From an uncultured Candidatus Saccharibacteria bacterium (GTDB lineage: Bacteria > Patescibacteriota > Andersenbacteria > UBA10190), in the NCBI GenBank assembly GCA_964371255.1, contig CAYJKV010000005.1, positions 13,816 through 77,815 on the forward strand: DNA of 64,000 nt, read 5' to 3'. Shown here piece after piece: positions 22,452 through 63,413 of the stretch. Each line of letters starts with the position of its first letter. The stretch's first letter is position 1. Below the pieces are notes generated by a model, which was given only the letters and a program-made list of their open reading frames with translations, did no database searches and was not told the DNA's origin. Made by a program: the position numbers and the translations under genes.

Positions 22452-22520
22452 AGGTGATATTATTTGTACCTAATTATTATCAATGCATCAATAGCGTGTA
22501 AACAAATCGCCTGCACGCAA

Positions 22521-22560: not shown

Positions 22561-22631
22561 GCCGCGGGTCAGAGTTGAACTGACTACGCCGACCTCTTCA
22601 GGGTCGCGCTCTACCGATGAGCTACCGCGGC
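22560..22631 (-). tRNA. tRNA-Phe (anticodon GAA)
   Basis: Reverse-complement GCCGCGGTAGCTCATCGGTAGAGCGCGACCCTGAAGAGGTCGGCGTAGTCAGTTCAACTCTGACCCGCGGCA. Anticodon loop is CTGAAGA. Confidence 0.8.
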
Positions 22632-23964: not shown

Positions 23965-24036
23965 GGGCGGTTAGCTCAGTGGTAGAGCAGTGCGTTTACA
24001 TCGCAAAGGTCGGGGGTTCGAACCCCTCACCGCCCA
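23965..24036 (+). tRNA. tRNA-Val (anticodon TAC)
   Basis: GGGCGGTTAGCTCAGTGGTAGAGCAGTGCGTTTACATCGCAAAGGTCGGGGGTTCGAACCCCTCACCGCCCA. Anticodon loop is TTTACAT. Confidence 0.85.
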
Positions 24037-24137
24037 CCTTACACAGCGTCCTCGCCTAACACGGCATATCCAATATTTACTACCTAAAAGCTTTAGCCAG
24101 AACAACTAAAGACTATATCCACTGTTAATATCATTAG

Positions 24138-24222
24138 TGCGGACGGTGGGATTTGAACCCACAACCTCGTAATGAGGCACAGCCCCTCAAGCTGCTGCGT
24201 AAACCAATTCCGCCACGTCCGC
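24138..24222 (-). tRNA. tRNA-Leu (anticodon GAG), long variable arm
   Basis: Reverse-complement GCGGACGTGGCGGAATTGGTTTACGCAGCAGCTTGAGGGGCTGTGCCTCATTACGAGGTTGTGGGTTCAAATCCCACCGTCCGCA. Anticodon loop is TTGAGGG. Confidence 0.8.
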
Positions 24223-28246: not shown

Positions 28247-31059
28247 TATTTAATTTCACTGAAGTAGATATTAACTGTCATCTTCAACAGCAAACGGGCC
28301 TTGTCTAAAATATTTGACCTAACTGTAAAAGGTACTTCAATGGTCTGCCCAGGCCTGGCTTCTAATCTAGTCTGTCCTGGAATATTGATTGTTGCTTGGC
28401 GGGACACCGCCCTTACTATTGTCTCGTCATAAGCCGTCAGATTACCGTCATTGGCCATTAATCTTAAAACATATTCCCCTTCTTGCCTGAAGATTGCGTT
28501 AGTGGTTGCTGTTTGGCTATCACTTAACTCCATCTGTCCCGCTGGCCCACTGACCTGAGCCCATTCTACCAGCAGCGGGTTTGCTCCTGATATTCCATCA
28601 TCACTGACCACCCCCGTCATCTGAACAGGTTCATTGATCAGAAGCTGCAGGTCTTCCCCGGCCGAAACTTGCGGAGCATTATGGACAATCACCGCCACCT
28701 CATCAGCTGCCAACAGTTCACCGTCACTGGCACTGAGCCGTAGTATATAACGACCAGGTAAAGTAAAATCAACCGACGTGGCAGCCTGGTCGTATCCATT
28801 TATACTCACTTCGCCCGGTCCGCTAATTTTACTCCACAGGAGGTTCACCTGTCCTGGCTCCGTTGGTTTTCCGTCATCGGTCACCACTCCGGACAGCTGC
28901 ACTGCACTGCCCCATTCGGCGATAATATCATTTCCCGCGCTTACCTGGGGAGCTGCGTTGCGTACAATCACGGACACCTCGACTGTGCTAATAGATGAAC
29001 TCGCCTTACTATCTGAAGACACGTAAGTGAAAGTATCTTTCCCTGCAAAAAATCGATCCGACAAGTAAAGAAAGGAGCCGTTCGCATTGAGTGTCACATT
29101 ACCATGCTGTGACTCTTGTACTAGTTGTGCTGTTAAAATGTCGCTGTCTTCATCTGTGTCATTCGCCAATACGCCAGGTGCGGGGATCGTTAATTCCTCG
29201 TATTGAAAAGCCTCATAACTATCATTCTGGCCCACCGGCACCGTGTTCACTTGCACGATGATTTCGTCGGAAGATATTAATTCCCCATCACCTGCCTGCA
29301 ATCTTAAAGTATAATCTCCAGCTTCACTGAATGTAGCGCTAGTCGCAGCCAAAGTATCGTCTATAAACACCACTTCACCTGTCCCGCTTACTTTGCTCCA
29401 CATTATTTGCTGGGGCTGCCCCGGCGGCTCACCGTCGTCTTCCACTGTCCCAAGCAGTATTGCGGCATCGGGTAGATTAATTATCATATCCTCTCCCGCC
29501 TGTACCACTGGCGCGGCATTTCTGACCGCTACGGTTATTTCTACTGTGACCGGCTGTGATGTGGTTACTCCATCAAATGCCTGATAAGTAAAACTATCTA
29601 CCCCCCGCCAGTCGCTATTAGATGTATAACTAAACGAACCGTTGGCACTTAACGCTAATTCACCATGTTGCACATTATCGACCAGCTGTGCGGATAATTG
29701 ATCTCCGTCTGGATCGGTATCATTCTGTAATACGCCATTAGACATTTCTATCTGCAACGATTCACCTCTCCAGGCGTCATATTCTTCGTCATTAGCGCTC
29801 GGTGCTTGATTTTCCGCCTTGACCGTTATTACTACATCGTCGGTAGATGTCAAAGTTCCGTCTCCTGCTGACAATTCCAACACGTACACCCCTGCTTCCA
29901 AAAACGTGGCTGTTGTTGTCAATGCGGTCGCATCACCGAAAATCACCCCGTCAGGCCCGTTTACCTTACTCCATGCTACCGCTACGCTCGCTGGAGGATC
30001 CGGCAAGCCGTCGTCTGACATAGTACCATTCAGATTAACCTGACTAAGCGGCAACCTTATTTGTTGATCAACGCCGGCATTCACTGCCGGTGGAGAATTT
30101 TCCACCAAGACATTAATCACCGCTTCTCCGGTAACAATATCAGGGATGATTTCGTAACTGTCTGTCTCTATTAAAACATTGCCAAAAGGCTTACTAGATG
30201 ACTTATTGGCTGTCGTGACTGTTGTTTGTCCCACCCCCACTGCTTTGAAAGTGAATATCCCTAAAGTACCGGCGCCGCTATTATTATTGGCTAGGCTAAA
30301 ACCGCCCGATCTCACCTCTCCGGAACTGTTAATCGTACTCAAGCCCCGCGTATCAGCAATAAAAGTCGCAAAGTCCCCACTCTGTTGATCGACCAATGCC
30401 AGTTTAGTCTGGTCGAACCTCAAATATTGCGCCCAGTTCGCAAATGGAGTTGCTTCCTCCAGCCTTACTCTAATTTCTACGTTATCGCCCAAAGCCAGCT
30501 TTGTCTTGTTTGTTTGCAATGATAAATCTGGCGCCGGTGGTGCCGCCTCAACCGTTAAGATGATTTCATCGCTGCCGCTGGTTTGCCCGTCATTGGCTGT
30601 CAGTGCTAATGCGTACGTTCCGGCGACAGAAAAAGCGGCCGTTGTTTGCAATGCGTTTACAGATCCAAACGCCACATCACCAGGACCAGATATTTTGCTC
30701 CAATTAATTGTCATTTCGCCCGGCACTATGGGTAACCCATCATCGGTAGCTGTACCTGCCAAATTCGCTTCTTGAGGTAGACGAACAGTACTATCGTCTC
30801 CGGCTGCGACTGTTGGCGGCACATTCTTGGCCGTCACCACCACTTTCACGGGATCACTGGAAAAAGTATCAATACTGTCATTGGCGGTAAACTGGATTGA
30901 ATGTTCACCAATCAAACTTAGGTCATCAGGCACCGTATAGTGAAATATCTTTTGTATTTCCTGCTCGGGGGGCAAGACCTGTGTTCTAATATATTGCGTC
31001 AGCATACTGCCGGCAGCGACCAGCAACAGTAAGCCAGCTGCCACTACTATACCAGTCAT
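28246..31059 (-). CDS. Giant surface protein: N-terminal TM anchor, a cohesin-like domain, and at least 7 PKD/K319L-like Ig-fold repeats
   Basis: Repeating unit of about 95 aa: P.V.AG.D....LP.....L.G...DDG.P.......WSK.SGPG.V.F........A.FS..G.Y.L.L.A.DG.L...DE. Cohesin-like segment VRLEEATPFANWAQYLRFD...GGFSLANNNSGAGTLGIFTF. Start taken at MTGIVVAAG (31059). Confidence 0.7.
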   Translation of the reverse strand: MTGIVVAAGLLLLVAAGSMLTQYIRTQVLPPEQEIQKIFHYTVPDDLSLIGEHSIQFTANDSIDTFSSDPVKVVVTAKNVPPTVAAGDDSTVRLPQEANLAGTATDDGLPIVPGEMTINWSKISGPGDVAFGSVNALQTTAAFSVAGTYALALTANDGQTSGSDEIILTVEAAPPAPDLSLQTNKTKLALGDNVEIRVRLEEATPFANWAQYLRFDQTKLALVDQQSGDFATFIADTRGLSTINSSGEVRSGGFSLANNNSGAGTLGIFTFKAVGVGQTTVTTANKSSSKPFGNVLIETDSYEIIPDIVTGEAVINVLVENSPPAVNAGVDQQIRLPLSQVNLNGTMSDDGLPDPPASVAVAWSKVNGPDGVIFGDATALTTTATFLEAGVYVLELSAGDGTLTSTDDVVITVKAENQAPSANDEEYDAWRGESLQIEMSNGVLQNDTDPDGDQLSAQLVDNVQHGELALSANGSFSYTSNSDWRGVDSFTYQAFDGVTTSQPVTVEITVAVRNAAPVVQAGEDMIINLPDAAILLGTVEDDGEPPGQPQQIMWSKVSGTGEVVFIDDTLAATSATFSEAGDYTLRLQAGDGELISSDEIIVQVNTVPVGQNDSYEAFQYEELTIPAPGVLANDTDEDSDILTAQLVQESQHGNVTLNANGSFLYLSDRFFAGKDTFTYVSSDSKASSSISTVEVSVIVRNAAPQVSAGNDIIAEWGSAVQLSGVVTDDGKPTEPGQVNLLWSKISGPGEVSINGYDQAATSVDFTLPGRYILRLSASDGELLAADEVAVIVHNAPQVSAGEDLQLLINEPVQMTGVVSDDGISGANPLLVEWAQVSGPAGQMELSDSQTATTNAIFRQEGEYVLRLMANDGNLTAYDETIVRAVSRQATINIPGQTRLEARPGQTIEVPFTVRSNILDKARLLLKMTVNIYFSEIK

Positions 31060-31170
31060 TACCTCGCCCTTGTTTAACACCGATGCCTCAAGGTTACCTG
31101 GCCGGCAGCCTGTCGGCTCTCTCTTTACTCTCTGCCCTGGGCTATGCAGTAAATTAATCATCAGCCTTGA

Positions 31171-32376
31171 TTATTCAAATATTGAATCGGTAAACACTTG
31201 CGGACTGTCCGTTATAAAGTTGAATAATAAACTTGTCAGGTCCACATTACGACCTCTGACCGTAATTGGTATTGCAGCGTTACTGCCAATTTCTACATAA
31301 ACAACATCCGGGGCGACAAAGTACACTTCCGGTGCCGGTTGAACCGATATTGTTACTTCGTCTGTCGTGTTCAGCGCCCCGTCATTAGCTGTTAGTCGCA
31401 GCACGTATGTTCCATCCGTGCTGAATGTCGCTGTAGTGGTTGTCTTATCACCAGAGCCAAAAGTCACCGTGCCTGGCCCGGACACTTTGCTCCATTGCTT
31501 AGTTACCAGCGCTGGTGGTGTAGGCAAGCCATCGTCGGACACCGCCCCTATTAAAGTTATTGAGTTAGGTAGTCTGATTGTCTTATCCTCCCCCGCTGCC
31601 ACCACCGGAGCAGTATTATGCGGCCAGACATTTATTACTAATTCTCCTCCGCCTACCGTTGGAACAAAATCTGTTCCGCCGGTATCGCTAAATCGGTTAC
31701 CAAACAAGTTGGACGCGGAATAATTCTCAGTCGTAATCTTGACTGGCACCGGCACGGTTGCTGCCGCCGGCAAACTAGACTCAACCCTAAACGTAAAACT
31801 GCCTAATGTCCCGCTCCCCCCCTCGTTATTGGTCAAGCTAAAGCCACCGGCTCTAATCTCGTCCGTTTGGTTGATTGTTTGCAGACTTCTTGAATCCGGG
31901 ACAAACGTTGGCCAACTGCCGCCATTTTGTTGTTCCAGTTTTAGCAACCGATTATCGCCATTAAAGCCCAGCCATTCTTGCCAGCTGGCAAACGCAGCAG
32001 CGTCCGCCAGGTTCATGGTCACTGTCACGGCCTCACCAACAGTCACATTCTCTTTATCAACGCTAATTGTTAAATTAGTGTCACCTTCTCGGGCAAAATT
32101 GGCAATCACGATCATTAAGTCAGTATTATTAACCGCTCCGTCGCTATTAGCATCGGCGCGGCCATCCAAGTCTGGATCTCCCGTTGTTTTGCCAAAGTTA
32201 GCTGAAACTAGCATTAGGTCGGTAATATTCACTACCCCATCACCATTCAAATCGCCTAAAGTCCCAGCCGCTTCCGCCTTGATCGCCTGACCCCATATTA
32301 TGGCTAGCACAAATAGCCCTTTCAGAACGACCGAAGATTTCCAAGAAGCATTCATAAGGACAACAAAAGTATGCAT
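31171..32376 (-). CDS. Surface protein with signal peptide, type-I dockerin repeats, a cohesin-like domain and one PKD-like repeat (paralog of 28246-31059)
   Basis: Dockerin-like GDLNGDGVVNITDLMLVSANFG and ADANSDGAVNNTDLMIVIANFA. Cohesin-like VTMNLADAAAFASWQEWLGFN..GGFSLTNNEGGSGTLGSFTF. PKD-like APVVAAGEDKTIRLP..SDDGLP..WSKVSGPG. Confidence 0.7.
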   Translation of the reverse strand: MHTFVVLMNASWKSSVVLKGLFVLAIIWGQAIKAEAAGTLGDLNGDGVVNITDLMLVSANFGKTTGDPDLDGRADANSDGAVNNTDLMIVIANFAREGDTNLTISVDKENVTVGEAVTVTMNLADAAAFASWQEWLGFNGDNRLLKLEQQNGGSWPTFVPDSRSLQTINQTDEIRAGGFSLTNNEGGSGTLGSFTFRVESSLPAAATVPVPVKITTENYSASNLFGNRFSDTGGTDFVPTVGGGELVINVWPHNTAPVVAAGEDKTIRLPNSITLIGAVSDDGLPTPPALVTKQWSKVSGPGTVTFGSGDKTTTTATFSTDGTYVLRLTANDGALNTTDEVTISVQPAPEVYFVAPDVVYVEIGSNAAIPITVRGRNVDLTSLLFNFITDSPQVFTDSIFE

Positions 32377-44953: not shown

Positions 44954-45964
44954 TTATACATATTTTAACCGATATGTTCCGCTTACCTTGATTATGCTTA
45001 CCGCTATTATTAGGTACACAAGGGCTGCCAGCTTTGTGATGAAAAAATGATCAAGCAGAATAACTGGCACTAAAGCAGCCAATATTGTCATTGACGTTCT
45101 GCCTAAAGTCATCAGCATCCACAGTAAAATTCCAATAATTATCAAACTTCCGCTAATCGCTCCAATCTGCGATAAAATCATTAATGGAACTGAGTGTGCG
45201 TAATCAATCTCCCAGGGCTGATATGAAATATGTTCTGCATCCAAATAACTTCTCAGTTCCATTTTGTAGTTACGTACACCAAGGCCAGTCCAATCATTGT
45301 GTAATTTTATAATTTGTACACTCCACTCATATCCTCTTAATCTCTCCGGTTTAGCCAAATCGCGACTATCATTCAATCGTTGTGACAACAGGGGCCATAG
45401 AACGATCATGAATAAAACAATTATGTTTATTGATAAATAACGACGGTTGCTATTGTCCATCGCAAAAATACCTGATGCTAATAATATCCATCCCAATATT
45501 GCTGCGCGCGAAAAAGCCATACACAAACCAAAACCTAAAGTAAATACAATGATAACGAAAATTATCTTCGCGCCTCTTTCGCCCCAAAGGCGCTCTGTCA
45601 TAATTAATGCTAATAAACACAGGCCCCCTAAAATATTAGCGTGTTCAAATGGTCCATAGCCCCGCACAATTCCATTCCCGAATTTTGCCACGCCGCTCAT
45701 TGAACTGTTAATTACGGATTCCCCAATTAGCCTCAATCCCAAATCATGCTGCAATACAAATTGGGCTACACCCCATTGGGCAAAAATGCATATTATTAAT
45801 ATCATGATCCACCCCAAAACAATCTTCTCTTTCTTGTCCACGAAAGCGACGCTTGCCAGCACTGCGATGACTAATATCAATTTAGCCGCATAATTATCAA
45901 CAAATCCCAAACCAAACATTGCTAAGCCTCCAGTAATAACTAACCACATGTGTTGATAGCTCAT
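44954..45964 (-). CDS. O-antigen ligase-like polytopic membrane protein
   Basis: About 10 TM helices, with a Wzy_C-like loop (AFSRAAILGW, PFEHANILGG). Confidence 0.55.
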   Translation of the reverse strand: MSYQHMWLVITGGLAMFGLGFVDNYAAKLILVIAVLASVAFVDKKEKIVLGWIMILIICIFAQWGVAQFVLQHDLGLRLIGESVINSSMSGVAKFGNGIVRGYGPFEHANILGGLCLLALIMTERLWGERGAKIIFVIIVFTLGFGLCMAFSRAAILGWILLASGIFAMDNSNRRYLSINIIVLFMIVLWPLLSQRLNDSRDLAKPERLRGYEWSVQIIKLHNDWTGLGVRNYKMELRSYLDAEHISYQPWEIDYAHSVPLMILSQIGAISGSLIIIGILLWMLMTLGRTSMTILAALVPVILLDHFFITKLAALVYLIIAVSIIKVSGTYRLKYV

Positions 45965-53537: not shown

Positions 53538-53912
53538 ATGTATACTAAGCCCATGTCCATTATCACCCGTTATACCAAGCGATTATCCGTTATTCTGACC
53601 CTTGGGCTATTATTTTTGCCCCTTATCTCCCAGGCTCAGGCTACGCCCGCCAACTTTGAAAATCCCCTAGACCCTGTCAGGGACGTCCGGGTTCTAATTC
53701 AAAACCTAATTATTTGGCTTGTTGGATTATCGGCCCTCATCGCCCTTCTTGCTTTGGTTGTGGGAGGTATGCGTCTGATCGTTGGCGGTTTCGACAATGA
53801 ACAAGAAGCTGCCAAAGCAAAAAGAATTATTACCTGGGCTGTTATCGGCCTGGTTGTGGTAGCTATGGCGGCAGGCATTCTGTCTACACTCAGCGACGTA
53901 CTCGACATTTAA
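53538..53912 (+). CDS. TrbC/VirB2-like (CPR-type) pilin, single domain
   Basis: Signal peptide, then hydrophobic helix-GG-R-hydrophobic-acidic/basic loop-hydrophobic helix: LVVGGMRLIVGGFDNEQEAAKAKRIITWAVIGLVVVAMAAGI. Confidence 0.65.
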   Translation: MYTKPMSIITRYTKRLSVILTLGLLFLPLISQAQATPANFENPLDPVRDVRVLIQNLIIWLVGLSALIALLALVVGGMRLIVGGFDNEQEAAKAKRIITWAVIGLVVVAMAAGILSTLSDVLDI

Positions 53913-53930
53913 TCGATTAGATCATCACTT

Positions 53931-54563
53931 ATGCCTAAATTCCTGCCATCACTTATCATAATCCTGCTCGCTTGCGTCTTTTTAGTCTTACCCGTTCAAA
54001 TTCTTCATGCTCAAACGTCGTGCGACAACCTGTCCGCCTGCATAACCGAGACGTATTCTTGGGCCACCGAGACGGTTAGATTATCTCCATACACCATTAG
54101 TGAATTTCTGACTAACATCATAGTTTTTGTATCTTCCTTTGTTGCCATTGTGACAGCGGTCGTAATTTTGTTCGGTGGTCTCATGTACGTCTTTTCTGCT
54201 GGTGATGAAAGACGTGCCGCGCAAGCCAAAAACATTATTTTATTCGCCATTATTGGGCTAATCATTGCCGTCAATACCAGTATCATCGTCGGACTTATCC
54301 AAGACGTCGCTGGCGACCCTGCTGGTCCTGGTCTTGGGGTTGGGCCGATAATCGAACTGATTGGTCAGATTGGTATTATTATACTTGCTCCACTTGCTTT
54401 GATAGCCACTGGGGCCATCGTTTATGGCGGTTATATGTATATCACCTCGGCTGGTGAAGAAGATCGGGCTCGTCGTGGAAAACAAATAATTATCTACGCT
54501 CTCGTTGGTGTCTTTATTACCTTAATTTCAGCCTTAATAGTTAATGTTGTGATTTCGTTATAG
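53931..54563 (+). CDS. Tandem two-domain TrbC/VirB2-like pilin fusion
   Basis: Two copies of the pilin unit (..ILFGGLMYVFSAGDERRAAQAKNIILFAIIGL.. and ..IVYGGYMYITSAGEEDRARRGKQIIIYALVGV..) joined by a Gly/Pro linker. Confidence 0.65.
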   Translation: MPKFLPSLIIILLACVFLVLPVQILHAQTSCDNLSACITETYSWATETVRLSPYTISEFLTNIIVFVSSFVAIVTAVVILFGGLMYVFSAGDERRAAQAKNIILFAIIGLIIAVNTSIIVGLIQDVAGDPAGPGLGVGPIIELIGQIGIIILAPLALIATGAIVYGGYMYITSAGEEDRARRGKQIIIYALVGVFITLISALIVNVVISL

Positions 54564-54595
54564 CATTAAGCATCCTCACTAAAACTTTTAAGACC

Positions 54596-54985
54596 ATGCC
54601 TTTTAAGAACACCCTGCCCAAGTTACTGCAAACACGCATCTTATTATACGTCGTGTTCGTGTCATCTTTGTTTCCATTATCGACCTACGCCCAAGCTGTC
54701 AGGCCAGTGCCCAACCTGTGGTGTAGTCTGTGGGGAATCCGCTGCGGCGGTGGAGCGCCGCTTAATACTCTGTGGGGCATGCTGTGGTCAGTTGTCACCA
54801 TTGCTTTATCTTTTGTTGCCATTGTTGCTACTGCTTTTTTGGTCTATTATGGCTTTCTTTATGTAATGTCACGCGGCGAAGAGGACAACGCTCGTCGTGC
54901 CAAAGCCGGTATTGTTTATGCGATCCTGGGTATGATTGTTGCCGGTACAGCCGCTTGGCTGGTTAACGCTGTCATTAATATATAA
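54596..54985 (+). CDS. TrbC/VirB2-like pilin variant with a Cys pair in the mature N-terminus
   Basis: LWCSLWGIRCGG, then the pilin unit LVYYGFLYVMSRGEEDNARRAKAGIVYAILGM. Confidence 0.6.
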   Translation: MPFKNTLPKLLQTRILLYVVFVSSLFPLSTYAQAVRPVPNLWCSLWGIRCGGGAPLNTLWGMLWSVVTIALSFVAIVATAFLVYYGFLYVMSRGEEDNARRAKAGIVYAILGMIVAGTAAWLVNAVINI

Positions 54986-54987
54986 TT

Positions 54988-55812
54988 ATGGCCAGTATAG
55001 CAAAATCATTATTCTTTGTTGCCACCATCACTATCTTGGCCCTAAGCGTCTTCCCGGTTATCGCTCAAGTCCAACCAATTATTGCCCCCGATTGTGGTTT
55101 CTTGGGCATGAACTGTACGGGCGGTGAAACTTTTGGCGGCAATTTCGCTCCCTTTATGCTTACTCTCATCAACGTCGCTCTCGGCTTAATTGGTACCATA
55201 TCAACCGCCTTCATTGTTATTGGTGGCTACTTGTATGTCACCTCCACCGGTGACGAGCACAAGGCGGAAAGAGCTAAAAATCAGATTATTTACGCCATTC
55301 TTGGTCTTGTTGTTGCCGGTGGCGCATTTGCGCTAGTCAACACAGTCACTACTGTTACTTCCACTCCGCTCGTGTTTTACCTTGTGCCTTACGTTTTGAT
55401 GGCCTTATCTTTAGTTAGTATTATTGCCGCCATATACCTTGTTTATGCCGGATACTTATACATCACCTCCACCGGTGACGAGGAAAATTCTGCTCGCGCC
55501 AAACGGCAAATAGTCTACGCCATGCTCGGAATGTTTATTGCCAGTTCTGCTCTTGTTATCGTCAATGTTATCGCTAGTCGTGATGCCACGGGTCTAATCG
55601 TTAATATTCGCAGTGTTGTTAACACCCTTTTAACTATTCTGGGCGTCGCGGCGGCTGTGTATATTATTATCGCCGGCGCCATGTATATAACCTCTACTGG
55701 CGACCAAGACAAGTCGGCCAGGGCAAAAATGCAAATCGTCTACGCTCTGATCGGGATTGTTGTTATAATCTTGTCTGCCGTAGCTGTCAATCTCATCGTT
55801 AGGGCGGTCTAG
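54988..55812 (+). CDS. Tandem three-domain TrbC/VirB2-like pilin fusion
   Basis: Three pilin units (..GGYLYVTSTGDEHKAERAKNQIIYAILGL.. ; ..AGYLYITSTGDEENSARAKRQIVYAMLGM.. ; ..AGAMYITSTGDQDKSARAKMQIVYALIGI..). Starts 3 bp after the previous gene. Confidence 0.65.
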   Translation: MASIAKSLFFVATITILALSVFPVIAQVQPIIAPDCGFLGMNCTGGETFGGNFAPFMLTLINVALGLIGTISTAFIVIGGYLYVTSTGDEHKAERAKNQIIYAILGLVVAGGAFALVNTVTTVTSTPLVFYLVPYVLMALSLVSIIAAIYLVYAGYLYITSTGDEENSARAKRQIVYAMLGMFIASSALVIVNVIASRDATGLIVNIRSVVNTLLTILGVAAAVYIIIAGAMYITSTGDQDKSARAKMQIVYALIGIVVIILSAVAVNLIVRAV

Positions 55813-55890
55813 CCTCTCCCTTCCCGCGCCGTCCAAAATCCCTATTATCTAAATTTTATAAATAAGCTATATTAACATCACACCAAGGAG

Positions 55891-56250
55891 GTGAATTTTA
55901 TGAAAATAAAAACTACCCTTTTCGTTTTAGCGTTTCTCATGTTTCTGTTGGTCCCCACTGCATCTTTAGTTGCTAGCGGCCTGACGACAGTGACACCTTT
56001 TGAGGGTACTGCCACAAATAGGGATCCTATCGTGGCCATAACTAACCTGGTTAACGGTTTGCTGGTTGTTGTCGGTATTATCGCGGCTATTTTCGTTGTT
56101 ATTGGTGGTATGCGCTATATCTTCTCGCAAGGCGATGAAGACGCTCAGGTTCAGGCGCGTAACACAATTCTCGCGGCCGTGATAGGTATCGTTGTGGTTA
56201 TTCTATCCGCCGTGGTTGTGAACTTGGTGATCAGGGCTGCTCGAGGATAA
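55891..56250 (+). CDS. TrbC/VirB2-like pilin, single domain
   Basis: AGGAGGTGA ribosome-binding site. Signal peptide. VVIGGMRYIFSQGDEDAQVQARNTILAAVIGIVVV. Confidence 0.7.
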   Translation: MNFMKIKTTLFVLAFLMFLLVPTASLVASGLTTVTPFEGTATNRDPIVAITNLVNGLLVVVGIIAAIFVVIGGMRYIFSQGDEDAQVQARNTILAAVIGIVVVILSAVVVNLVIRAARG

Positions 56251-56548
56251 ACTATTACAATCTAAATCATTGTCTGGGTCGCTGACGGCTTCTGCGGCGA
56301 TTTTTGCTAAGCAAACAAGATATTTACTCAAGCAAACATCCAGTCACGCGCTTAGCGCAATTATTTACCTGCTAATTTAACAGACACCGATGGTCTCGGC
56401 ACAAACGTAGATAACCTACACTGGACTCTGCTGTTTTAACTCATGAAGACTGCCGGCAAAAATTTGCGACTATAGTTTACTCAAGAAAAGTGCTATATTT
56501 TTCATATAATCCACGCCCAGACAGAAGGCGTTATAAATTTTTCAGGAG

Positions 56549-56902
56549 GTGATACAAATGATTTGCAAAAAAACTATACTAACCATCTCGCTCGTGAGTT
56601 TAGTGCTTCCTCTGGTCGTCAGCGCCCAAGGATTCTCGCCTGTCACACCGTTTGCTGGCACTTCTACTGGCACCTTGATTCAGGCCATCACCAACATAGT
56701 TAACGCGTTATTAGCCCTCGCTGCTGTTATCGCTGCTATTTTCGTCATTATTGGCGGAGTTCGTTATGTTACCTCCCAAGGCGACGAGGATGCTTCCGAG
56801 CAGGCTAAAGGCACTGTCCTTTATGCAATAGTCGGCATTATCATAATCGCCCTGTCAGCTGTTATTGTGAACTATATTATTGCCGCTGTCCCAGCGGGAT
56901 AA
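56549..56902 (+). CDS. TrbC/VirB2-like pilin, single domain (close paralog of 60036-60377)
   Basis: AGGAGGTGA ribosome-binding site. QGFSPVTPFAGTSTGTLIQAITNIVNALLALAAVIAAIFVIIGGVRYVTSQGDEDASEQAKG. Confidence 0.7.
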   Translation: MIQMICKKTILTISLVSLVLPLVVSAQGFSPVTPFAGTSTGTLIQAITNIVNALLALAAVIAAIFVIIGGVRYVTSQGDEDASEQAKGTVLYAIVGIIIIALSAVIVNYIIAAVPAG

Positions 56903-57222
56903 TATTCTTTGGTCAGAAAGTAAACAACCAATTTAGCTGTCTCAATTTTCCGGCCATCGCCATCTGTTAGTACGTGATTCGGTGAGTCGCGTACTTTTGT
57001 GTATACACCAGAAAAATACCAGACAAAAAAGAGTCATGGGTTGTCAGGTGGCACCTGGCATTGATTTGCCCTCTCTCAGGAGCATTTCCGCTTTGGTATT
57101 TGGACTTTGTGTCCCCGTGCTTGAAACTTATATGATTGGTTATTAATTGAAAATTGAATCCTTTCTAATTCTAACGCACTGTACTTTGTATCCTTTTTCT
57201 AATTTACTTATAAGTATCACCT

Positions 57223-58416
57223 ATGTGCTCATCTCCCACCCGCGTCCTGATTATCGCTCCCACCCCCTTCTTCGCCGACCGGGGTTGCCATATTCATATC
57301 GCCGAACAAGCCTTGGCGCTGCAGCGCCAAGGGCTTGTCACACTAATGGTCACATATGGTCTCGGCCGGGATGTTGACGGTATTAAAACCATGCGTACAT
57401 GGCGGTTGCCCTGGTATAAACAAGAAGCCATCGGCCCCAGTTGGCATAAGTTCTATCTTGACGTGTTTTTGTTTATTGTAGCCCTTCTAGCCGTCCGGCG
57501 ATTTAAGCCTCAGGTAATCCACGGCCATTTACATGAAGGCTGCCTGATCGCATGGAGCATTAGCCGCCTTTTTAAAATCCCCTTTGTTTTTGATTGCCAG
57601 GGGAGTTTAACAGGGGAATTACTTGTCCATAATTTCATTCTGGCCAAAACCAACTGGTTAAAAGGCTTCTGGTACGCGTTAGAACAAGCCATCGATCATT
57701 TGCCCAATATTATCCTCGCTCAATCAACGGAAATGCGTCGTGAGCTCATTGTGCGTTTTAAGATTGATCCCAGTCGTATTGTGATGGCTTACGACGGTGT
57801 TAATACTCACGTCTTTCACCCCCAACAAAAAGACCCACAACTTCTCCGGGAATTAAAACTGCCTGCCGACCAACCAATTATCGTGTATCTAGGGGGGCTA
57901 AGTCCGCACAAAGGAGTTGATGTATTGCTTAAAGCCTTTCAGGTTGTGTTGCAGACCCACCCTGCTGTTTTCCTGTTGCTTATGGGCTATCCCCACGAAG
58001 CCAACTACCAACAGTTAGCGCAATCGCTTCGGATAAATCATCGCACTCGGATCACGGGCCGTGTCCGCTACCAAGACGCTCCGCGCTATCTTGCCCTTGG
58101 TGACATCGCGGTTGCTCCCAAGCGTACCCAGACTGAAGCCAATGGGAAAATCTATAACTACATGGCCACCGGATTGCCCACTGTTGCTTTTGATACGGTG
58201 GTCAACCGTGACATCTTAGGTGATATCGGCGTTTATACCAATCCATCTGATGATTATCGTGGTCTGGCCCAAGCCCTGAACAAATTATTAAATGATCCGT
58301 CAGCAGCGCGTCTTATTGCCGGTCAAGTACGTACCAAAGCTGTCGCTCGCTATTCGTGGGATCGTGTTGCTGATCGTATAATAGCTGCTTATCAGCGCAT
58401 TCAAGCTCCCTTTTAG
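57223..58416 (+). CDS. Glycosyltransferase family 4 (GT-B, RfaG-like)
   Basis: The C-terminal domain (GGLSPHKGVDVLLKAF ... E...G.P) is GT4-like. Confidence 0.8.
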   Translation: MCSSPTRVLIIAPTPFFADRGCHIHIAEQALALQRQGLVTLMVTYGLGRDVDGIKTMRTWRLPWYKQEAIGPSWHKFYLDVFLFIVALLAVRRFKPQVIHGHLHEGCLIAWSISRLFKIPFVFDCQGSLTGELLVHNFILAKTNWLKGFWYALEQAIDHLPNIILAQSTEMRRELIVRFKIDPSRIVMAYDGVNTHVFHPQQKDPQLLRELKLPADQPIIVYLGGLSPHKGVDVLLKAFQVVLQTHPAVFLLLMGYPHEANYQQLAQSLRINHRTRITGRVRYQDAPRYLALGDIAVAPKRTQTEANGKIYNYMATGLPTVAFDTVVNRDILGDIGVYTNPSDDYRGLAQALNKLLNDPSAARLIAGQVRTKAVARYSWDRVADRIIAAYQRIQAPF

Positions 58417-58615
58417 TTTCTCCACATGTCAAACTGGTAGGGGACATGCCCCTAGTGAGAATGGGCAACCTTAGAAACACAAAAGGAAAAACGGAAAGTG
58501 AAAATCGCTGTGTAAAAAAATACATCGATATAATCCGCATAAACTAAGTAGTAACAGAGTGATAGACATTATAAATACAGACTGGGATCCTCAATTAGCT
58601 AAAAATACCAAGCTA

Positions 58616-58668
58616 TTTTTTGAATTTTTAATTGTTGTTTTTCGTTTTTAGCTTTACGTTTTTCGTTC
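58616..58668. repeat. Conserved T-rich motif, copy B (aattgttgtttttcgtttttagctttacgtttttcg), not next to a tRNA
   Basis: Shares the 14-mers aattgttgtttttc and ctttacgtttttcg with copy C at 63731-63779. Confidence 0.7.
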
Positions 58669-58768
58669 TTTCAGATTTCCTTCAGTTTATCCCTAGGGAA
58701 CCCCATCGGGGGATTTCGGATTTAACTCATTAGTCTTTTAACCCTTCTTACGATATTGTTCTTAATAA

Positions 58769-59929
58769 ATGACAACAAAATTCAACCCCCACCTCTTTTT
58801 AGCTGTCTTTTTAGTCTCCTTTCTGATTCATTCCAGCTATTTTCGGTTAATAACTTTTGCGGACTATGACAAATGGGTCGCACGAACCATTAACTTGTCA
58901 GAGGACATATTGACCCCATCACCGCAAATACGTTTTTTTGACGTGAATCACGAATACCGTTATGGTTCGCATCCCGGCACAACCTTTCTTCTGCCCGCTG
59001 CCTCTTTATATAAACTTGGCCTGCCTGGTCCCACCAGCCTCTTCCTCAGCATTACATTCATTTCTTCTTTCTTGACCGCTTCTATTGCAGCTGCCTGCCA
59101 TCACTTAAGGCCCAGAAGTCCCTGGTGGCTGATATCGTCGATTATTCTCTTTATCCACCCGCTCTACTTCTACAGCACACCGACTAATGCTATTATCGGG
59201 CCCATCACTGCCTTGCTTTTCCTCTTAGCCCTAATTGTGTACGAGCAAAGGAAGCAATCGTTGTCTGTTGGTTTAATATTGTTTATATCATTCATTTTTG
59301 GGCTAGGCTTATCTACTCGCTTGCACGATACAGTATTCATTGGTGCTCCCCTGATCACTTTTATAGGTGCCTATGTGCGTAAAAAACACCTTATCTTAAT
59401 GATCTTGGCAGCGGCTTTATTCGCTTTCGTCCTTAACCCGTTCCTCTGGTTCATTCCCCTGGAATATCTGAAGACCGCCATTCTACGCACCTCTTCTCAT
59501 CTCGCCTACACTGGGATGCCTGGTTTCAACCTTACTCTTCTTTGGGCGCTTTATTATACGCCGCTGACCATTATCTCTATTGCCCTCGCGGTCGTGTCCT
59601 TTATCTTTGCCCGAAAAAAACTACCCGTTTCTTCTCCCTTTCTTCTCACTCTGTTTCTCATTACTGCCATCACCATCGGTCTGTTCCGAAGCGCCAACTT
59701 TAAAACGCTTCGCTATTTCTACCCATTAATTTTTACTTGGGATATTTTCTTGCCGCTATTTCTCCTTTGCTTGTCTGACAATATTTACTTTCCTTTTATT
59801 TCTTCAGTGCGTTCTGCCCTCTACGCCCGTCATTTAACGCGCCTCGTGCTAATGGTAATCGTCGTTTTTGGCTTTGCTTTTCTGACCGCCTATAACTTGC
59901 TTTTGCCTGGTTCTCAAGGACTTATTTAA
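58769..59929 (+). CDS. Polytopic membrane protein (about 11 TM), possible glycosyl/oligosaccharyl-transferase-like
   Basis: Hydrophobic throughout, with short loops. The only functional hint is its position next to the GT4 gene and the pilin genes. Confidence 0.45.
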   Translation: MTTKFNPHLFLAVFLVSFLIHSSYFRLITFADYDKWVARTINLSEDILTPSPQIRFFDVNHEYRYGSHPGTTFLLPAASLYKLGLPGPTSLFLSITFISSFLTASIAAACHHLRPRSPWWLISSIILFIHPLYFYSTPTNAIIGPITALLFLLALIVYEQRKQSLSVGLILFISFIFGLGLSTRLHDTVFIGAPLITFIGAYVRKKHLILMILAAALFAFVLNPFLWFIPLEYLKTAILRTSSHLAYTGMPGFNLTLLWALYYTPLTIISIALAVVSFIFARKKLPVSSPFLLTLFLITAITIGLFRSANFKTLRYFYPLIFTWDIFLPLFLLCLSDNIYFPFISSVRSALYARHLTRLVLMVIVVFGFAFLTAYNLLLPGSQGLI

Positions 59930-60035
59930 ACACAAAAATGTGTATGGAGAATAATATGACAATTAACCAGTTAGTGTGTTATTATTTATGCATACCTAAA
60001 CGTCTAACATTACCAGAGAAGGAGGTGAGGAGGAC

Positions 60036-60377
60036 ATGAACATTAAGAAAGTATTAGCTACCACAGCCGCTGTCGGTTTGATAGCGATTCCAATGATTGC
60101 CTCTGCTCAAGGATTTGCACCGGTGACTCCATTTGAAGGGACTTCAACCGGCACACTGATTCAAGCCATCACCAACATTGTTAACGCTCTACTCACCTTG
60201 GCTGCTGTTATCGCCGCTATCTTTGTCATCATCGGTGGCGTGCGGTACATAACCGCTCAAGGAGATGAAGATGCAGTCGCAGCTGCGAAGAACACAGTTA
60301 TCTATGCCGTCATCGGTATAGTCGTGATTGCTTTATCAGCCGTAGTCGTCAACTTCATTATTGCTGCCATCCCGTAA
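60036..60377 (+). CDS. TrbC/VirB2-like pilin, single domain
   Basis: AAGGAGGTGAGGAGG ribosome-binding site. QGFAPVTPFEGTSTGTLIQAITNIVNALLTLAAVIAAIFVIIGGVRYITAQGDEDAVAAAKN. Confidence 0.7.
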   Translation: MNIKKVLATTAAVGLIAIPMIASAQGFAPVTPFEGTSTGTLIQAITNIVNALLTLAAVIAAIFVIIGGVRYITAQGDEDAVAAAKNTVIYAVIGIVVIALSAVVVNFIIAAIP

Positions 60378-60397
60378 GTTTGGCGTTATTTATACAA

Positions 60398-60432
60398 GGC
60401 GCTCGATTCAACTAGGAATCGCGCGCTTTTGT
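60398..60432 (+). terminator. Putative rho-independent terminator after the last pilin gene
   Basis: GGCGCTCGATTC-aactag-GAATCGCGCGC stem-loop followed by TTTTG. Confidence 0.5.
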
Positions 60433-60662: not shown

Positions 60663-60890
60663 ATGACCATTCTTCCCCCTGAAGTTATTTTAGCTGTCAA
60701 CGCCGCCTTGTTGCTTATATCTGGCATCATTACGATGCTTTTGCTACGCACCGGCGTCCATTACGCCCATAGTGTCGGAGATTCCGCCGCCCAAGACACT
60801 CAAAAGAAGGCTATCTTAATATTCGTCTTGTCCCTTTTCGCTCTCAGCCTTCTGGCCGCCTCGTTTAACGTCCTGGTTTCCTCCGTCTAA
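60663..60890 (+). CDS. Small membrane protein, hypothetical
   Basis: 75 aa, 2 TM. Confidence 0.3.
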   Translation: MTILPPEVILAVNAALLLISGIITMLLLRTGVHYAHSVGDSAAQDTQKKAILIFVLSLFALSLLAASFNVLVSSV

Positions 60891-61013: not shown

Positions 61014-62255
61014 TTACTTACTCTCTGCGTCCGCTACCGGGAAGAAAACTTCCCAATAAACTAACGCCGGCGTTGGTGGCTGGAAGTAAACAACCGCCCG
61101 CTCAACCTGTTCATCCGGATTTCCTTCCCAGAACCTCCTCACCTCAGCTGACGTGACAGTGAAACTGTCACGTGTCGGGCTCTCTCTCGCGGGAAATAAA
61201 GGCCGGAGCTCTTTCCTGAACACAGACACAGCGTCCATACCCGCTTTAAGCGCTTCTGGGTTCGAATTGTCCAGAGTAACGTTCTCGGGCATCAACCACA
61301 ACCTCGGCTGCTGTGTGTCATAGAAGCCTGGAACAGTAATTGTCTCCTTAAGTTCCCACGCTCCCGGTGCAACAGGTTCCGACGGAATAAAGGTTATTCG
61401 CATCGTCCAACTCACTTCCTCCCCATCAACCCTAAACGGTACCACGCCTGGTACCTGGAGAGAGTTCGGCATGCACGTACTGTACGAACCAACCCAAAGA
61501 ACACTGTCATTTGGCAGTTTTGTCACAGTTGCTGTGCATTCCAAACCGTTCACGCCAACTGTTCTACCAAAATTAGGATGTCTTGAGTATCCGGAAGTAC
61601 TCCGAACCTCTAAGAACAACGCCACTTCGTTGGTACCTATGCGGTTTTCATCACCACATACTTGGAATGGTTCCTGATCCTGCCTAGTAATCCACCACGC
61701 GGGTGTTGCTGGCAGCGAACTTCCTCCTAACCTGGTTTCCACCATCGCGCCTTGTAATAGCGGTCCAATTGGCAGCGGTAGATATCCGTGCTTATCAATC
61801 GAACCTGTCCATTCCCTGCGCATCCTGTTCCATCCTTCGTCTGGTCCAGTCATAGACCGTAGCATCCAATCATTTATCTGGTCAGGCGCAACATTCGTCA
61901 TCACCGTCTTTGGACCACCAACAATAGTTCCGTCAGCACCATCTTCAGCAATAGGGGGTATAGCATGTATCTCCCTCCCATTTTCCACTGCTGTTGAAAT
62001 TGCGTCAGGTTTTTCGTCGGACAGTTCGTCGCTACATCCTTTCGGGAAGAACATCCAACACAGAATCAATAAGAGGATGATTGTCATGCGTCCCAGATAG
62101 CGTTGAATCCAGCCTAGCACACTTAAAAACGCCGCTGGTCCTAGTCTGGGGATATGCGCACCGAACGCTCTGGTAATTTTCACGATCACGATCACGATCA
62201 CAGCCACGATGAATAAAGCGCATATCACGGCAATGAAATGTAGTACCACGCTCAT
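61014..62255 (-). CDS. Membrane-anchored extracytoplasmic protein, hypothetical
   Basis: Two N-terminal TM helices followed by an extracellular domain of about 330 aa. Same strand as, and 12 bp downstream of, the SPFH gene. Confidence 0.5.
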   Translation of the reverse strand: MSVVLHFIAVICALFIVAVIVIVIVKITRAFGAHIPRLGPAAFLSVLGWIQRYLGRMTIILLLILCWMFFPKGCSDELSDEKPDAISTAVENGREIHAIPPIAEDGADGTIVGGPKTVMTNVAPDQINDWMLRSMTGPDEGWNRMRREWTGSIDKHGYLPLPIGPLLQGAMVETRLGGSSLPATPAWWITRQDQEPFQVCGDENRIGTNEVALFLEVRSTSGYSRHPNFGRTVGVNGLECTATVTKLPNDSVLWVGSYSTCMPNSLQVPGVVPFRVDGEEVSWTMRITFIPSEPVAPGAWELKETITVPGFYDTQQPRLWLMPENVTLDNSNPEALKAGMDAVSVFRKELRPLFPARESPTRDSFTVTSAEVRRFWEGNPDEQVERAVVYFQPPTPALVYWEVFFPVADAESK

Positions 62256-62267: not shown

Positions 62268-63413
62268 TTAGGGGTTTTCTTTTTTCAGGAATCCTTCAAT
62301 GGCTGATAGCACATCCGCTGCGTCTTTCACGTTTATGGCAGATAATTTTATTTCGCCTGCCTTGCTGCGAATCACATCCATTAGGAATGCTTTCTGTTTG
62401 TCATCTGTCAGACCCAGCTTATCTGCCAGTGCTTCGATACCTTCCGCTTCACCAATGCGACGCAGTCTTTCGATCGCCTGTTGTTTTAAGCCTTCCTGAT
62501 GGCCAATAAAACTTAGATCAATCGCTCTGGATGCCTCAGCATCGTCTGGGGAAGCGGGTTGAAGCTGAATTTTCTCAACTACGATATTGCACACTAACAG
62601 AGAATCACCGGTCTCAAATGTATCATCATCAGGAGTAGGTCCAGGAATACGTCTAAGCAGCTTGCCCTGGATGAAGATGGTGTCGTCATCTTCGGTAAGC
62701 GCTTTACGCACTTTCCTCTCAAATAGACCCCTTTCTCTGATTATGTCATTGTTCACAACATCTCCCGCTGCCGGAAACACAGAAAAAGTGAAGAACGTAG
62801 CCGCTTCTCGCATAGCTTCCTTCATTGGCTTATTTACTACCCGGAAAAAACGTGCAGCAATTCGTTTGACTGACTCTTCCACCCCGTTCTCCTGAATAAG
62901 CACCTCGTGGTTAGTCAAATCCCTCGCACTCTTTGACAGGTAGTAATTCAGATCCTGCTTAAACAGGGAGAAAACTATCCCCAGATGCACCGGGTTTTCT
63001 GACAAACGGATTTGAAGAGTGGCGTCTCCTTCAACTCTTACTCTTGGATACTGCGTATTTGATGAGTCTGTGTACATCATTGAGGCATGGATAGGCACCT
63101 CAAACTGATCTGTCGGTACGCGATATCCAAGGTAAAGCGGCCACAAGCCGAAAGCCCAACTGCCCTTCCAAAAGGCCAACTTAACGGTATCTTGGTCAGG
63201 CACCTTAGCTCGGTTGCTGATGTTTTGGTCTCCAGCCCATGATTCGTCCCAATAGGAACGACCCAGCACCGTTCTCTCATACTGACCAAAGCGGTAAAAC
63301 ACAATTTTTTCATTAGCCCTCAGCATGTACAACGACTGGTAGATGATCACAGCCGCAACCATTGCTAGAGCCAACCCCACAACAGCCAATTCCACGATCG
63401 TTAACGTGTCCAT
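62268..63413 (-). CDS. SPFH/band-7 (stomatin/flotillin-like) membrane protein
   Basis: N-terminal TM, then IVFYRFGQYERTVLG (SPFH core start), and a C-terminal coiled coil. Confidence 0.65.
   Translation of the reverse strand: MDTLTIVELAVVGLALAMVAAVIIYQSLYMLRANEKIVFYRFGQYERTVLGRSYWDESWAGDQNISNRAKVPDQDTVKLAFWKGSWAFGLWPLYLGYRVPTDQFEVPIHASMMYTDSSNTQYPRVRVEGDATLQIRLSENPVHLGIVFSLFKQDLNYYLSKSARDLTNHEVLIQENGVEESVKRIAARFFRVVNKPMKEAMREAATFFTFSVFPAAGDVVNNDIIRERGLFERKVRKALTEDDDTIFIQGKLLRRIPGPTPDDDTFETGDSLLVCNIVVEKIQLQPASPDDAEASRAIDLSFIGHQEGLKQQAIERLRRIGEAEGIEALADKLGLTDDKQKAFLMDVIRSKAGEIKLSAINVKDAADVLSAIEGFLKKENP

Follow-up and report, generated by a model that had tools for sequence, protein, structure and literature searches.

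Introduction

Arrays of VirB2-like pilin genes are a known feature of Patescibacteria. Quinonero-Coronel et al. (2025; PMC12102498) applied the Pfam models PF18895 and PF04956 to 3,035 Patescibacteria genomes and reported 441 VirB2 arrays of 2–11 genes, some of which were broken by a non-pilin gene. Genomes of Andersenbacteria were included in that dataset, and the Patescibacteria type IV secretion system (T4SS) was described as related to the MPF-FATA class. Transposon insertion sequencing (Tn-seq) by Wang et al. (2023; PMC10633639) showed that a six-pilin array in a T4SS locus is essential in Southlakia epibionticum ML1, and the array is also described as essential in S. epibionticum in PMC12857230. 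Only a few sets of genes are demonstrably required for the epibiotic life of Patescibacteria, and T4SS pilin arrays are one of them. Here, we analyse an array of this kind from an uncultured Andersenbacteria-type member of the Patescibacteria (Candidate Phyla Radiation, CPR). It occupies 53538–60377 on the + strand of a 64-kb stretch of DNA, which we call the window and in whose coordinates all positions are given, and two glycosyltransferase genes lie among its pilin genes.

Results

The array holds ten pilin domains in seven genes

Six contiguous pilin genes (pil1–pil6) are followed by the two non-pilin genes and then by a seventh pilin gene (pil7). All seven pilin open reading frames (ORFs) were verified at the positions given below. 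In the list, TM stands for transmembrane, AF2 for AlphaFold2, GT4 for glycosyltransferase family 4, and 'local HMM' for a profile hidden Markov model that was built from the ten aligned pilin domains and run on all 721 stop-to-stop segments of the window.

53538..53912, + strand: pil1, single-domain pilin, signal peptide and two helices; PF18895 E 2.4e-14, PF04956 29.6 bits
53931..54563, + strand: pil2, fused two-hairpin pilin, signal peptide and four TM segments, N-terminal Cys-x6-Cys; PF18895 in two stretches, local HMM two domains
54596..54985, + strand: pil3, single-domain pilin, conserved N-terminal loop W-C-x2-W-G-I-R/K-C; PF18895 E 5.1e-7
54988..55812, + strand: pil4, fused three-hairpin pilin, signal peptide and six long helices; PF18895 E 4.9e-28 in three stretches
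55891..56250, + strand: pil5, single-domain pilin, N-terminal V-T-P-F-x-G-T-S/A-T; PF18895 E 1.4e-10
56549..56902, + strand: pil6, single-domain pilin; PF18895 E 2.5e-13, PF04956 28.8 bits
57223..58416, + strand: GT4 glycosyltransferase (GT-B fold), cytoplasmic; Glycos_transf_1 E 5.5e-22 (78.6 bits), Glyco_transf_4 E 5.9e-12 (46.4 bits)
58769..59929, + strand: predicted GT-C membrane glycosyltransferase of minimal fold, 386 aa, 11–12 TM helices (AF2), no large outer domain
60036..60377, + strand: pil7, single-domain pilin, candidate major subunit; PF18895 E 8.2e-13
60663..60890, + strand: orf75, 75-aa two-helix hairpin; local HMM E 2.2e-5, no Pfam match

All seven pilin genes scored above the PF18895 (T4SS_pilin) gathering score of 26.6 bits, with 30.1–97.5 bits (E 5e-7 to 5e-28). 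The ten PF18895 domains comprise two stretches in 53931–54563, three in 54988–55812 and one in each of the other genes. The PF04956 (TrbC/VirB2) cut-off of 27.9 bits was passed by pil1 and pil6; pil7 fell just under it at 25.6 bits and the other four pilin genes gave no match. The NCBIfam model NF045849 (pilin-like conjugal transfer protein; cut-off 40) matched pil4 at 79.8 bits in three stretches and pil7 at 33.7 bits. The local HMM recovered only the seven pilin genes (E 1e-26 to 1e-85) and, weakly, the 75-aa ORF at 60663–60890 (E 2e-5), with nothing further below E 0.3 among the 721 segments. Because its matches are confined to the array, the clustering is real and far beyond chance. The initial annotation of this DNA had described seven genes with ten pilin domains of one architecture, and both PF18895 and the local HMM bear this out. 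It had also called them TrbC/VirB2-like, in agreement with the PF18895 scores and with the two genes that pass PF04956. Judged by these profile matches, the units of the array are TrbC/VirB2-superfamily pilin domains.

Hydropathy analysis gave a signal-peptide segment and two, four or six TM segments per pilin gene. Between the two hydrophobic helices the domains share the motif G-G/A-x-x-Y-(I/V)-x-S-x-G-D/E-E-x(4)-A-K. Pairwise identity among the ten domains averages 36% and ranges from 21% to 81%, the highest value being that of pil6 and pil7. Signal-peptide cleavage sites were judged by eye; in most of the pilins the predicted site is A-Q or A-x-A. Predicted cleavage would leave an N-terminal Gln in several of the array pilins, as in VirB2. 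Three types of N-terminus can be distinguished: pil5–7 and their orthologues share V-T/x-P-F-x-G-T-S/A-S/T-G-T ahead of helix 1; pil3 and pil4, and pil2 of the window and of one relative (L012, see below), have a conserved Cys-x6-7-Cys loop; and pil1 has F-E/Q-N-P-L. The start of pil1 is possibly ATG 53553, and pil4 starts 3 nt past the stop of pil3.

The full-length products of pil6 and pil7 are 72% identical, with a proportion of synonymous differences (pS) of 0.79 and a DNA identity of 71%. As synonymous sites are saturated the duplication must be old, and a recent duplication or gene conversion is ruled out by this saturation and by the DNA identity. The two genes thus appear to be an old duplicate pair held similar by selection.

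The locus in related genomes

Labels beginning with L denote related loci or contigs. L012 is Ca. Andersenbacteria RIFCSPHIGHO2_02_FULL_46_16 (GCA_001817065.1), L007 and L012 represent one relative organism, and L001 and L002 are loci of the same strain as the window. GyrA is ~77–90% identical across the relatives that we compared. A search with the GT-C protein found L012 as the sole match in the species-representative genome set (61% identity), and its gene order is alike. On the strength of this match and the common synteny, the window organism belongs to the Patescibacteria, in the class Andersenbacteria. Several ENA and Logan metagenome assemblies hold an identical locus. In L001, a metagenome contig of the same species, the domain matches of pil1 and pil5 are truncated (5050–5358 and 7325–7765) and no solute-binding-protein gene was called; these differences are strain-level variation or assembly error.

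The small gene orf75 is kept at a like position in L006, L007, L008 and L009, with identities of 62% and 42% and a ratio of non-synonymous to synonymous rates (dN/dS) of 0.2 against L007. It has no signal peptide and no Shine–Dalgarno (SD) site, and its loop, Y-A-H-S-V-G-D-S-A-A-Q-D-T-Q-K-K, is a degenerate version of the pilin loop. It could be a degenerate pilin or a small VirB3-like partner.

Comparison with described pilin systems

The locus falls within the definition of a Patescibacteria VirB2 array given in PMC12102498. It is a chromosomal VirB2-like T4SS pilin array of a kind that is already published, and it shares with those arrays the PF18895 domain, divergent tandem paralogues, the occasional non-pilin interruption, a chromosomal location and the lack of a relaxase gene nearby. 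However, the window array is not beside virB4 and has fused two- and three-domain pilins. It also holds GT4 and GT-C genes, whereas the word stem 'glycosyl' is absent from PMC12102498, and its closest pair is 81% identical over the domain, compared with a maximum of 54% in that study. The initial annotation had singled the locus out as the window's strongest candidate for an uncharacterised surface-filament system. That description does not stand, as arrays of 2–11 VirB2-like pilin genes in Patescibacteria have been published (PMC12102498, PMC10633639, PMC12857230), and the high novelty claimed for it is not warranted.

Some features of the array were not described in the literature that we searched. 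These are fused two- or three-hairpin pilins whose copy number shifts between close relatives; up to three GT-C paralogues interleaved with pilin genes and evolving at the pace of the pilins; and a split into three pilins with perfect SD sites, likely the major ones, and four without. No description of fused VirB2-type pilins of any sort was found in this literature, which is not proof of their absence.

Like VirB2 of Agrobacterium, TrbC of RP4 and TraA of F, the window pilins have a signal peptide, two long hydrophobic helices, a short charged loop and ~70–75 mature residues. In contrast to these proteins, they belong to a monoderm host, in which classical T4SSs lack VirB2; their loop is acidic and then basic (G-D-E-D...A-K); they have no detectable profile-level similarity to solved pilins; and some are multi-domain fusions, which are unknown in the classical families. 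The MMCAP2_0565/Mbov_0395 family of Mycoplasma (NF045849) is similar in that its model matches pil4 and in its monoderm host, but it belongs to a mobile integrative and conjugative element (ICE) and to conjugation, whereas the window genes are chromosomal and arrayed and have no relaxase or ICE genes nearby. The VirB2 arrays of Bartonella and Anaplasma arose by tandem amplification and divergence, for which antigenic or host-range variation has been proposed in work cited in PMC12102498. Unlike the window array, they are found in diderm intracellular pathogens of animals and have neither fused pilins nor glycosyltransferases.

Link to a T4SS

The initial annotation had recognised no secretion ATPase in the window, and we agree: Pfam scans of ~40 ORFs of the window found no VirB4, VirD4 or VirB6 gene, and the sole Walker A motif is in an ABC transporter ATPase. 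A T4SS ATPase hidden among the ORFs of 792, 156, 281, 413 and 381 aa was considered and rejected, as none of these has a Pfam, NCBIfam or PDB match or a Walker A motif. Since the 64 kb include no VirB4, VirD4 or VirB6 gene, it is homology and the relatives that connect the array to a T4SS.

In the survey of Patescibacteria, a pilin gene was near virB4 in only 1135 of 1948 assemblies (PMC12102498), and Table S1 of that paper records the genome of L012 as 'Presence of VirB4: Yes'. The initial annotation had suggested that the filament uses either distant machinery or something unrecognised. The second option is needless because the nearest named genome with a like locus is VirB4-positive.

A contig of the relatives, L008, carries a module of GT4–methyltransferase, TylF, GT-C, pilin, GT-C and pilin genes; ahead of it, in divergent orientation, stand a TraC-like gene and a fragment of a VirB4-like ATPase (P-loop_TraG 31 bits, DUF87 30 bits, CagE_TrbE_VirB E 6e-4, Walker A G-A-G-K-S). 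Over 5 kb, L008 and L012 are 100% identical; they diverge exactly at a 176-bp repeat, which is also present downstream of gyrA in L012. Because the contigs part exactly at this repeat, we downgraded the adjacency of VirB4 on L008 and do not treat it as firm evidence: the junction may be a real alternative arrangement or an assembly path through the repeat. On either reading, L008 shows that a virB4 gene exists in the L008/L012 population, which agrees with Table S1.

Several observations weigh against the reading of this locus as a T4SS pilin array. Genes for VirB4, VirD4 and VirB6 are missing from the window and the junction on L008 is ambiguous, as described above. Additionally, a profile of the ten domains searched against PDB sequences matched only a designed coiled coil and PsbZ and no pilin, and a Foldseek search of the three-hairpin pil4 model against the PDB gave generic helical proteins, none at E ≤ 0.001; both searches were uninformative, the second with a model of moderate confidence (predicted local distance difference test, pLDDT, 68). 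Finally, a pilus built from PF18895 proteins has yet to be observed in any organism. Reviews treat a pilus as a possibility, and one from 2025 calls a pilus in these monoderms an "intriguing possibility". Overall, we give the reading as a T4SS pilin array a probability of about 0.7–0.8.

Fused pilins and repeat number

The AF2 model of pil4 (pLDDT 68; predicted template modelling score, pTM, 0.43) consists of a signal-peptide helix and six helices of ~33 residues that form three helix-turn-helix hairpins, with turns of four residues at G-D-E. As every hairpin begins and finishes outside, concatenation would be topologically neutral and successive hairpins would lie side by side.

The number of hairpins differs between relatives. 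Genes 2 and 4 encode two and three hairpins in the window, three and three in L009, three and four in L011, and four and two in L012.

The ten-domain profile matched 64,964 representative proteins at E ≤ 1e-3, and the top scorers were multi-hairpin proteins of up to 17 repeats and 1,775 aa. Proteins with 4–17 pilin-type hairpins in tandem are common in public metagenomes; an Altiarchaeales archaeon encodes at least one of them, in which Cys pairs lie between the repeats. In one multi-hairpin protein (P0063), P-F-x-G-T-S stands ahead of an internal hairpin, which argues that this motif belongs to the domain and is not a signal-peptide cleavage site.

Expression signals divide the pilins into two groups

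SD sites were checked for the 55 genes of the window. Most of these genes lack a match, and outside the array no match is longer than 6 nt. Conversely, pil5, pil6 and pil7 have perfect matches to AAGGAGGTGA of 10, 9 and 10 nt, respectively, the only sites of 9–10 nt in the window, and pil1–4 have no SD site at all. Thus, the strong AGGAGGTGA ribosome-binding sites that had been attributed to several of the pilin genes were found at three of them and not at the other four. The likely start of pil5 is ATG 55900, preceded by a perfect AAGGAGGTGA, and that of pil6 is ATG 56558, preceded by AGGAGGTGA; in both cases the upstream GTG is the less likely start. The signals of the region are as follows.

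55881..55899, + strand: SD region of pil5
56539..56557, + strand: SD region of pil6
56969..56995, + strand: terminator-like hairpin after pil6, 12-bp stem and then TTTTGTGT
59956..59985, + strand: promoter-like site upstream of pil7, ATGACA, 18 nt, TG, TATTAT
60017..60035, + strand: SD region of pil7
60396..60431, + strand: intrinsic-terminator-like hairpin and T-run after pil7, dG −22.4 kcal/mol, z −4.26

None of 200 shuffled sequences folds as well as the hairpin after pil7. A terminator after the cluster had been predicted; a terminator-like hairpin was found there, and a second one follows pil6. The promoter-like site upstream of pil7 is the best of the region, but it is a consensus match only and the region's count of such sites does not exceed the shuffled expectation. 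The long spacers had no Rfam match at E ≤ 1.

On these signals, pil5–7 are likely to be the major subunits and pil1–4 the minor ones. The three SD-bearing genes are exceptional translation targets in a genome that hardly uses SD sites.

The two glycosyltransferase genes

The GT4 gene at 57223–58416 was correctly named at the outset, as both Glycos_transf_1 and Glyco_transf_4 are above their cut-offs. Its orthologues in relatives are longer (658–680 aa), with a C-terminal S-adenosylmethionine (SAM) methyltransferase domain, and are followed by a gene for a TylF-type O-methyltransferase. The window organism lacks both the methyltransferase domain and the TylF gene, and a spacer of ~350 bp (58416–58769) remains, which we compared with L007 1600–3220 and L009 8400–9991. 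A tblastn search of the 300–350 bp spacers of the window found no relic of the methyltransferase domain, of TylF or of an extra GT-C gene, whereas relics exist in L012. A glycan, if the module produces one, would be without methylation in the window organism.

The membrane protein encoded at 58769–59929 had been predicted to have 11 TM helices, and the AF2 model has 11–12. It has no Pfam (E ≤ 1) or NCBIfam match and was recognised by structure comparison only. In its model it shares the polytopic GT-C membrane fold with ArnT, PMT, ALG and STT3 and, on this basis, is a GT-C glycosyltransferase. Its identity to ALG12/ALG9 (GT22), Pmt (GT39), AftA (GT85), ArnT (GT83) and AglB/PglB (GT66) is only 8–14%. 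Among 15 sequences with identities as low as 25%, two aspartates never vary: D32, which belongs to a D-Y-D directly behind TM1, and D46 of the first outer loop. The invariant Asp in the first extracytoplasmic loop is the putative catalytic residue. The family is tiny and confined to the lineage, with 26 sequence relatives among 5.8 billion protein clusters. N-glycosylation by an oligosaccharyltransferase (OST; PglB/AglB/STT3, GT66) was considered and rejected for this protein, which is almost all TM up to residue 378 and lacks the outer domain that bears WWDYG.

Both the Campylobacter Pgl pathway and mycobacterial glycolipid synthesis combine GT4 enzymes with a GT-C transferase. The best precedent for the layout seen here is TfpW of Pseudomonas aeruginosa (group IV pilA-tfpW), a GT-C arabinosyltransferase that glycosylates a type IV pilin (bioRxiv 10.1101/2020.04.19.049825). 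Its polytopic GT-C gene is directly beside the gene for the pilin that it modifies on Ser/Thr. The systems differ in that the pilin is of type IV there and of VirB2 type here, and in that modification has been demonstrated for TfpW and is only inferred in our case.

Synteny and rates of evolution

Wherever the GT-C of a relative is 45–74% identical, the GT-C and GT4 genes are found together with pilin genes. The GT-C gene is followed by pil7 in the window and has a like position in L009 and L010. In L011, it has been relocated between gyrA and a methyltransferase gene and is two genes from the array. L007 and L008 have two intact GT-C copies with a pilin gene after each (GT-C–pilin–GT-C–pilin), so that the unit was duplicated, and L012 has a third copy between the array and GT4, which is decayed and split by a 176-bp inverted-repeat element. 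In contrast, the GT-C relatives of 27–33% identity have no pilin-domain ORF on their contigs. Thus, when the synteny of GT4 and the membrane gene with the pilins was checked, as had been suggested, the linkage proved tight and dynamic within the clade and absent outside it. The earlier remark that the placement would fit pilin glycosylation is weakened by the relatives of 27–33% identity.

The 176-bp element is GC-rich, resembles a miniature inverted-repeat transposable element (MITE) with terminal inverted repeats, and occurs in at least three places in the Andersenbacteria relative (L012 781–956 and ~6642–6817; L008 2383–2558). A second repeat of 118 bp is found at L012 1388–1505 and L008 9470–9587. 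Neither repeat is present in the window.

Across relatives, orthologues of pil7 are the most conserved of the pilins (76–86% identity), whereas those of pil1–4 are 37–72% identical. Non-synonymous substitution rates (dN) were calculated against the orthologues of L011, with synonymous sites saturated throughout. The values were 0.055 for GyrA, 0.086 for the methyltransferase and 0.095 for the solute-binding protein, compared with 0.27 for both pil3 and pil5, 0.40 for GT-C and 0.42 for pil1. Non-synonymous evolution of the pilins and GT-C is therefore 3–8 times faster than that of the flanking housekeeping genes.

Against L007, pS forms a mosaic: it is 0.20 for pil7 and 0.22 for the gene of a 381-aa protein downstream of the array, and 0.58–0.80 for GT4, GT-C, pil6, orf75 and the gene of a neighbouring 413-aa protein. 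This mosaic suggests recombination between lineages inside the locus.

Discussion

A model for the locus

We propose a model that addresses the assembly of the pilins, the division of labour between them and their possible modification. In the first part, Sec would insert the pilins into the cytoplasmic membrane, and cleavage of their signal peptides would follow. A pool of hairpins would build up in the membrane, their two ends on the outside and their short G-D-E-x loop on the inside. A T4SS driven by VirB4, with its genes at another place in the genome, would then pull the hairpins from the membrane and polymerise them into a pilus or conduit.

The second part of our model concerns the individual subunits. 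We suggest that pil5–7 would provide the abundant structural subunits, whereas pil1–4, including the covalent dimer and trimer, would be scarce, variable subunits for the tip, the base or host specificity.

The final part involves the glycosyltransferases. GT4 may extend a polyprenyl-linked glycan in the cytoplasm, which would be O-methylated in the relatives. GT-C may then move the sugar, at the outer face of the membrane, onto the exposed, Ser/Thr-rich N-terminal segment of the pilins (V-T-P-F-x-G-T-S-T-G-T). Glycosylation of the pilins by the embedded enzymes is suggested by their linkage to the pilin genes, and we put it forward tentatively, at rather worse than even odds. In its fullest form, the model would have GT-C co-diversify with the pilins of an O-glycosylated VirB2-type filament, including fast-varying covalent 'poly-pilins', with a glycan that is O-methylated in the relatives that keep the methyltransferases; taken as a whole, this seems improbable to us.

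Alternatives to the model

In the strongest alternative, the pilins are T4SS pilins, but GT4 and GT-C serve a general envelope glycan (a lipoglycan, a wall polymer or another surface protein) and owe their place to inherited gene order. We regard this as a serious contender, somewhat short of even odds. GT4 and GT-C pairs act on glycolipids in mycobacterial phosphatidylinositol mannoside (PIM) synthesis, and GT-C enzymes glycosylate the teichoic acids of Gram-positive bacteria; both facts fit this explanation. Several observations also speak for it or against pilin glycosylation. No GT2 donor synthase or flippase was recognised at the locus, and the polyprenyl-phosphate sugar donor on which GT-C enzymes usually depend is not a product of a GT4. 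A second GT4 gene is found just past the window end (in L001 and L002) and, 8.6 kb upstream of the array, the window has a Wzy_C gene; the two suggest that the neighbourhood serves envelope glycans in general. Glycosylation is not known for any bacterial conjugative pilus (PMC9905601). The distant GT-C relatives, which have no pilin genes near them, adjoin genes for a penicillin-binding protein, an ABC-2 permease, a GGDEF protein, PMT_2 or a large Big_5 surface protein; the association of glycosyltransferases and pilins is thus clade-specific, and pilin glycosylation is something that we infer. Furthermore, gyrA, the methyltransferase and the solute-binding protein genes are equally syntenic, so that conserved linkage inside the clade is weak evidence.

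The behaviour of GT-C speaks against this alternative, however. In L011, the gene has moved, yet no further than two genes from the array. The two intact copies and the decayed one of the L007/L012 organism each lie between pilin genes. Additionally, the non-synonymous rate of GT-C is like that of the pilins and unlike that of its neighbours.

A second alternative is that some or all of the hairpin proteins, especially the fused ones, are membrane-resident parts of the T4SS channel or platform, nearer to VirB6 or VirB3. The fused members are polytopic (four and six TM segments), and public proteins with up to 17 hairpins would be hard to fit into a helical pilus. VirB2 is homologous to the N-terminal part of VirB6, as is CedA1 to CedA (PMC9905601). 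The lack of SD sites at pil1–4, which are thus probably not abundant, and the lack of a signal peptide in orf75 point in the same direction. However, each repeat keeps the full pilin-domain signature and scores like a single-domain pilin, the short outer linkers would put successive hairpins parallel and side by side as in the wall of a pilus, and the single-domain pil5–7 bear the expression signals expected of a bulk structural protein. We consider a platform role unlikely.

It is very improbable that we are dealing with generic two-helix hairpins of the membrane, such as small stress or holin-like proteins, that have no relation to conjugative pilins and bear a misleading Pfam name. For this reading, the ten-domain profile finds no solved pilin in the PDB, Foldseek of the pil4 model gives non-specific helical matches only and PF04956 scores are marginal. 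Against it, PF18895 genes stand in T4SS clusters beside virB4 in 1135 Patescibacteria assemblies, and in S. epibionticum the array is essential along with the T4SS; the TrbC/VirB2 gathering score is passed by pil1 and pil6, and the NCBIfam model of the Mycoplasma ICE pilin-like conjugal transfer protein also matches.

Whichever role the glycosyltransferases have, a T4SS pilin array would offer several handles at this locus: the probable split into major (pil5–7) and minor (pil1–4) subunits, fused hairpins that constrain packing, and glycosyltransferases whose evolution keeps pace with that of the pilins. Glycosylated pilins would be a novelty among VirB2-type filaments and would point to a way in which host range could vary. 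If our fullest proposal were true, the filament would be the first bacterial pilus of conjugative type to be glycosylated and the first pilus whose subunits are fused genetically, and variation in glycan and repeat number together would set host specificity in these epibionts. If the pilins are not glycosylated, the locus is a pilin array of the published type beside envelope-glycan genes.

Other genes of the window

The other window genes with Pfam matches include housekeeping genes and genes for PKD, cadherin and dockerin surface proteins, a P-type ATPase, an H+-pyrophosphatase, ABC transporters and a serine recombinase. Those that were looked at individually are listed here.

9470..12322, − strand: 792-aa protein (9944–12322) with an N-terminal multi-TM part and a long helical soluble part, then a 156-aa protein
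20778..22388, + strand: large serine recombinase (Resolvase, Recombinase, Zn_ribbon_recom)
22377..22631 and 23965..24222: tRNAs, in a cluster alongside the serine recombinase
27230..32376, − strand: three successive large secreted proteins (338, 971 and 401 aa) with PKD, cadherin-like, Big_9, dockerin and CBM60-like domains
44954..45964, − strand: Wzy_C (O-antigen ligase/PglL-type) membrane protein, E 2.7e-9
61014..62255, − strand: 413-aa protein
62268..63413, − strand: 381-aa protein

The proteins of 792 and 156 aa belong to no Pfam or NCBIfam family and have no Walker A motif. The Wzy_C family includes O-oligosaccharyltransferases that act on type IV pilins, and the protein at 44954–45964 is a further candidate for a surface-glycosylation enzyme. 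The proteins of 413 and 381 aa are a conserved membrane-anchored pair that always follows the pilin/orf75 end in relatives, and in L001 and L002 the second GT4 gene comes after them. Their identities to L007 are 65% and 87–92%, respectively, and neither is matched by Pfam, NCBIfam or the PDB; the start of the 381-aa protein looks SPFH/stomatin-like by eye. The three secreted proteins at 27230–32376 are possible adhesins of the presumed epibiont. The serine recombinase gene ends in or against a tRNA-Gly gene, the GC content dips at 10–18 kb, and the recombinase/tRNA site may be the edge of an integrated element.

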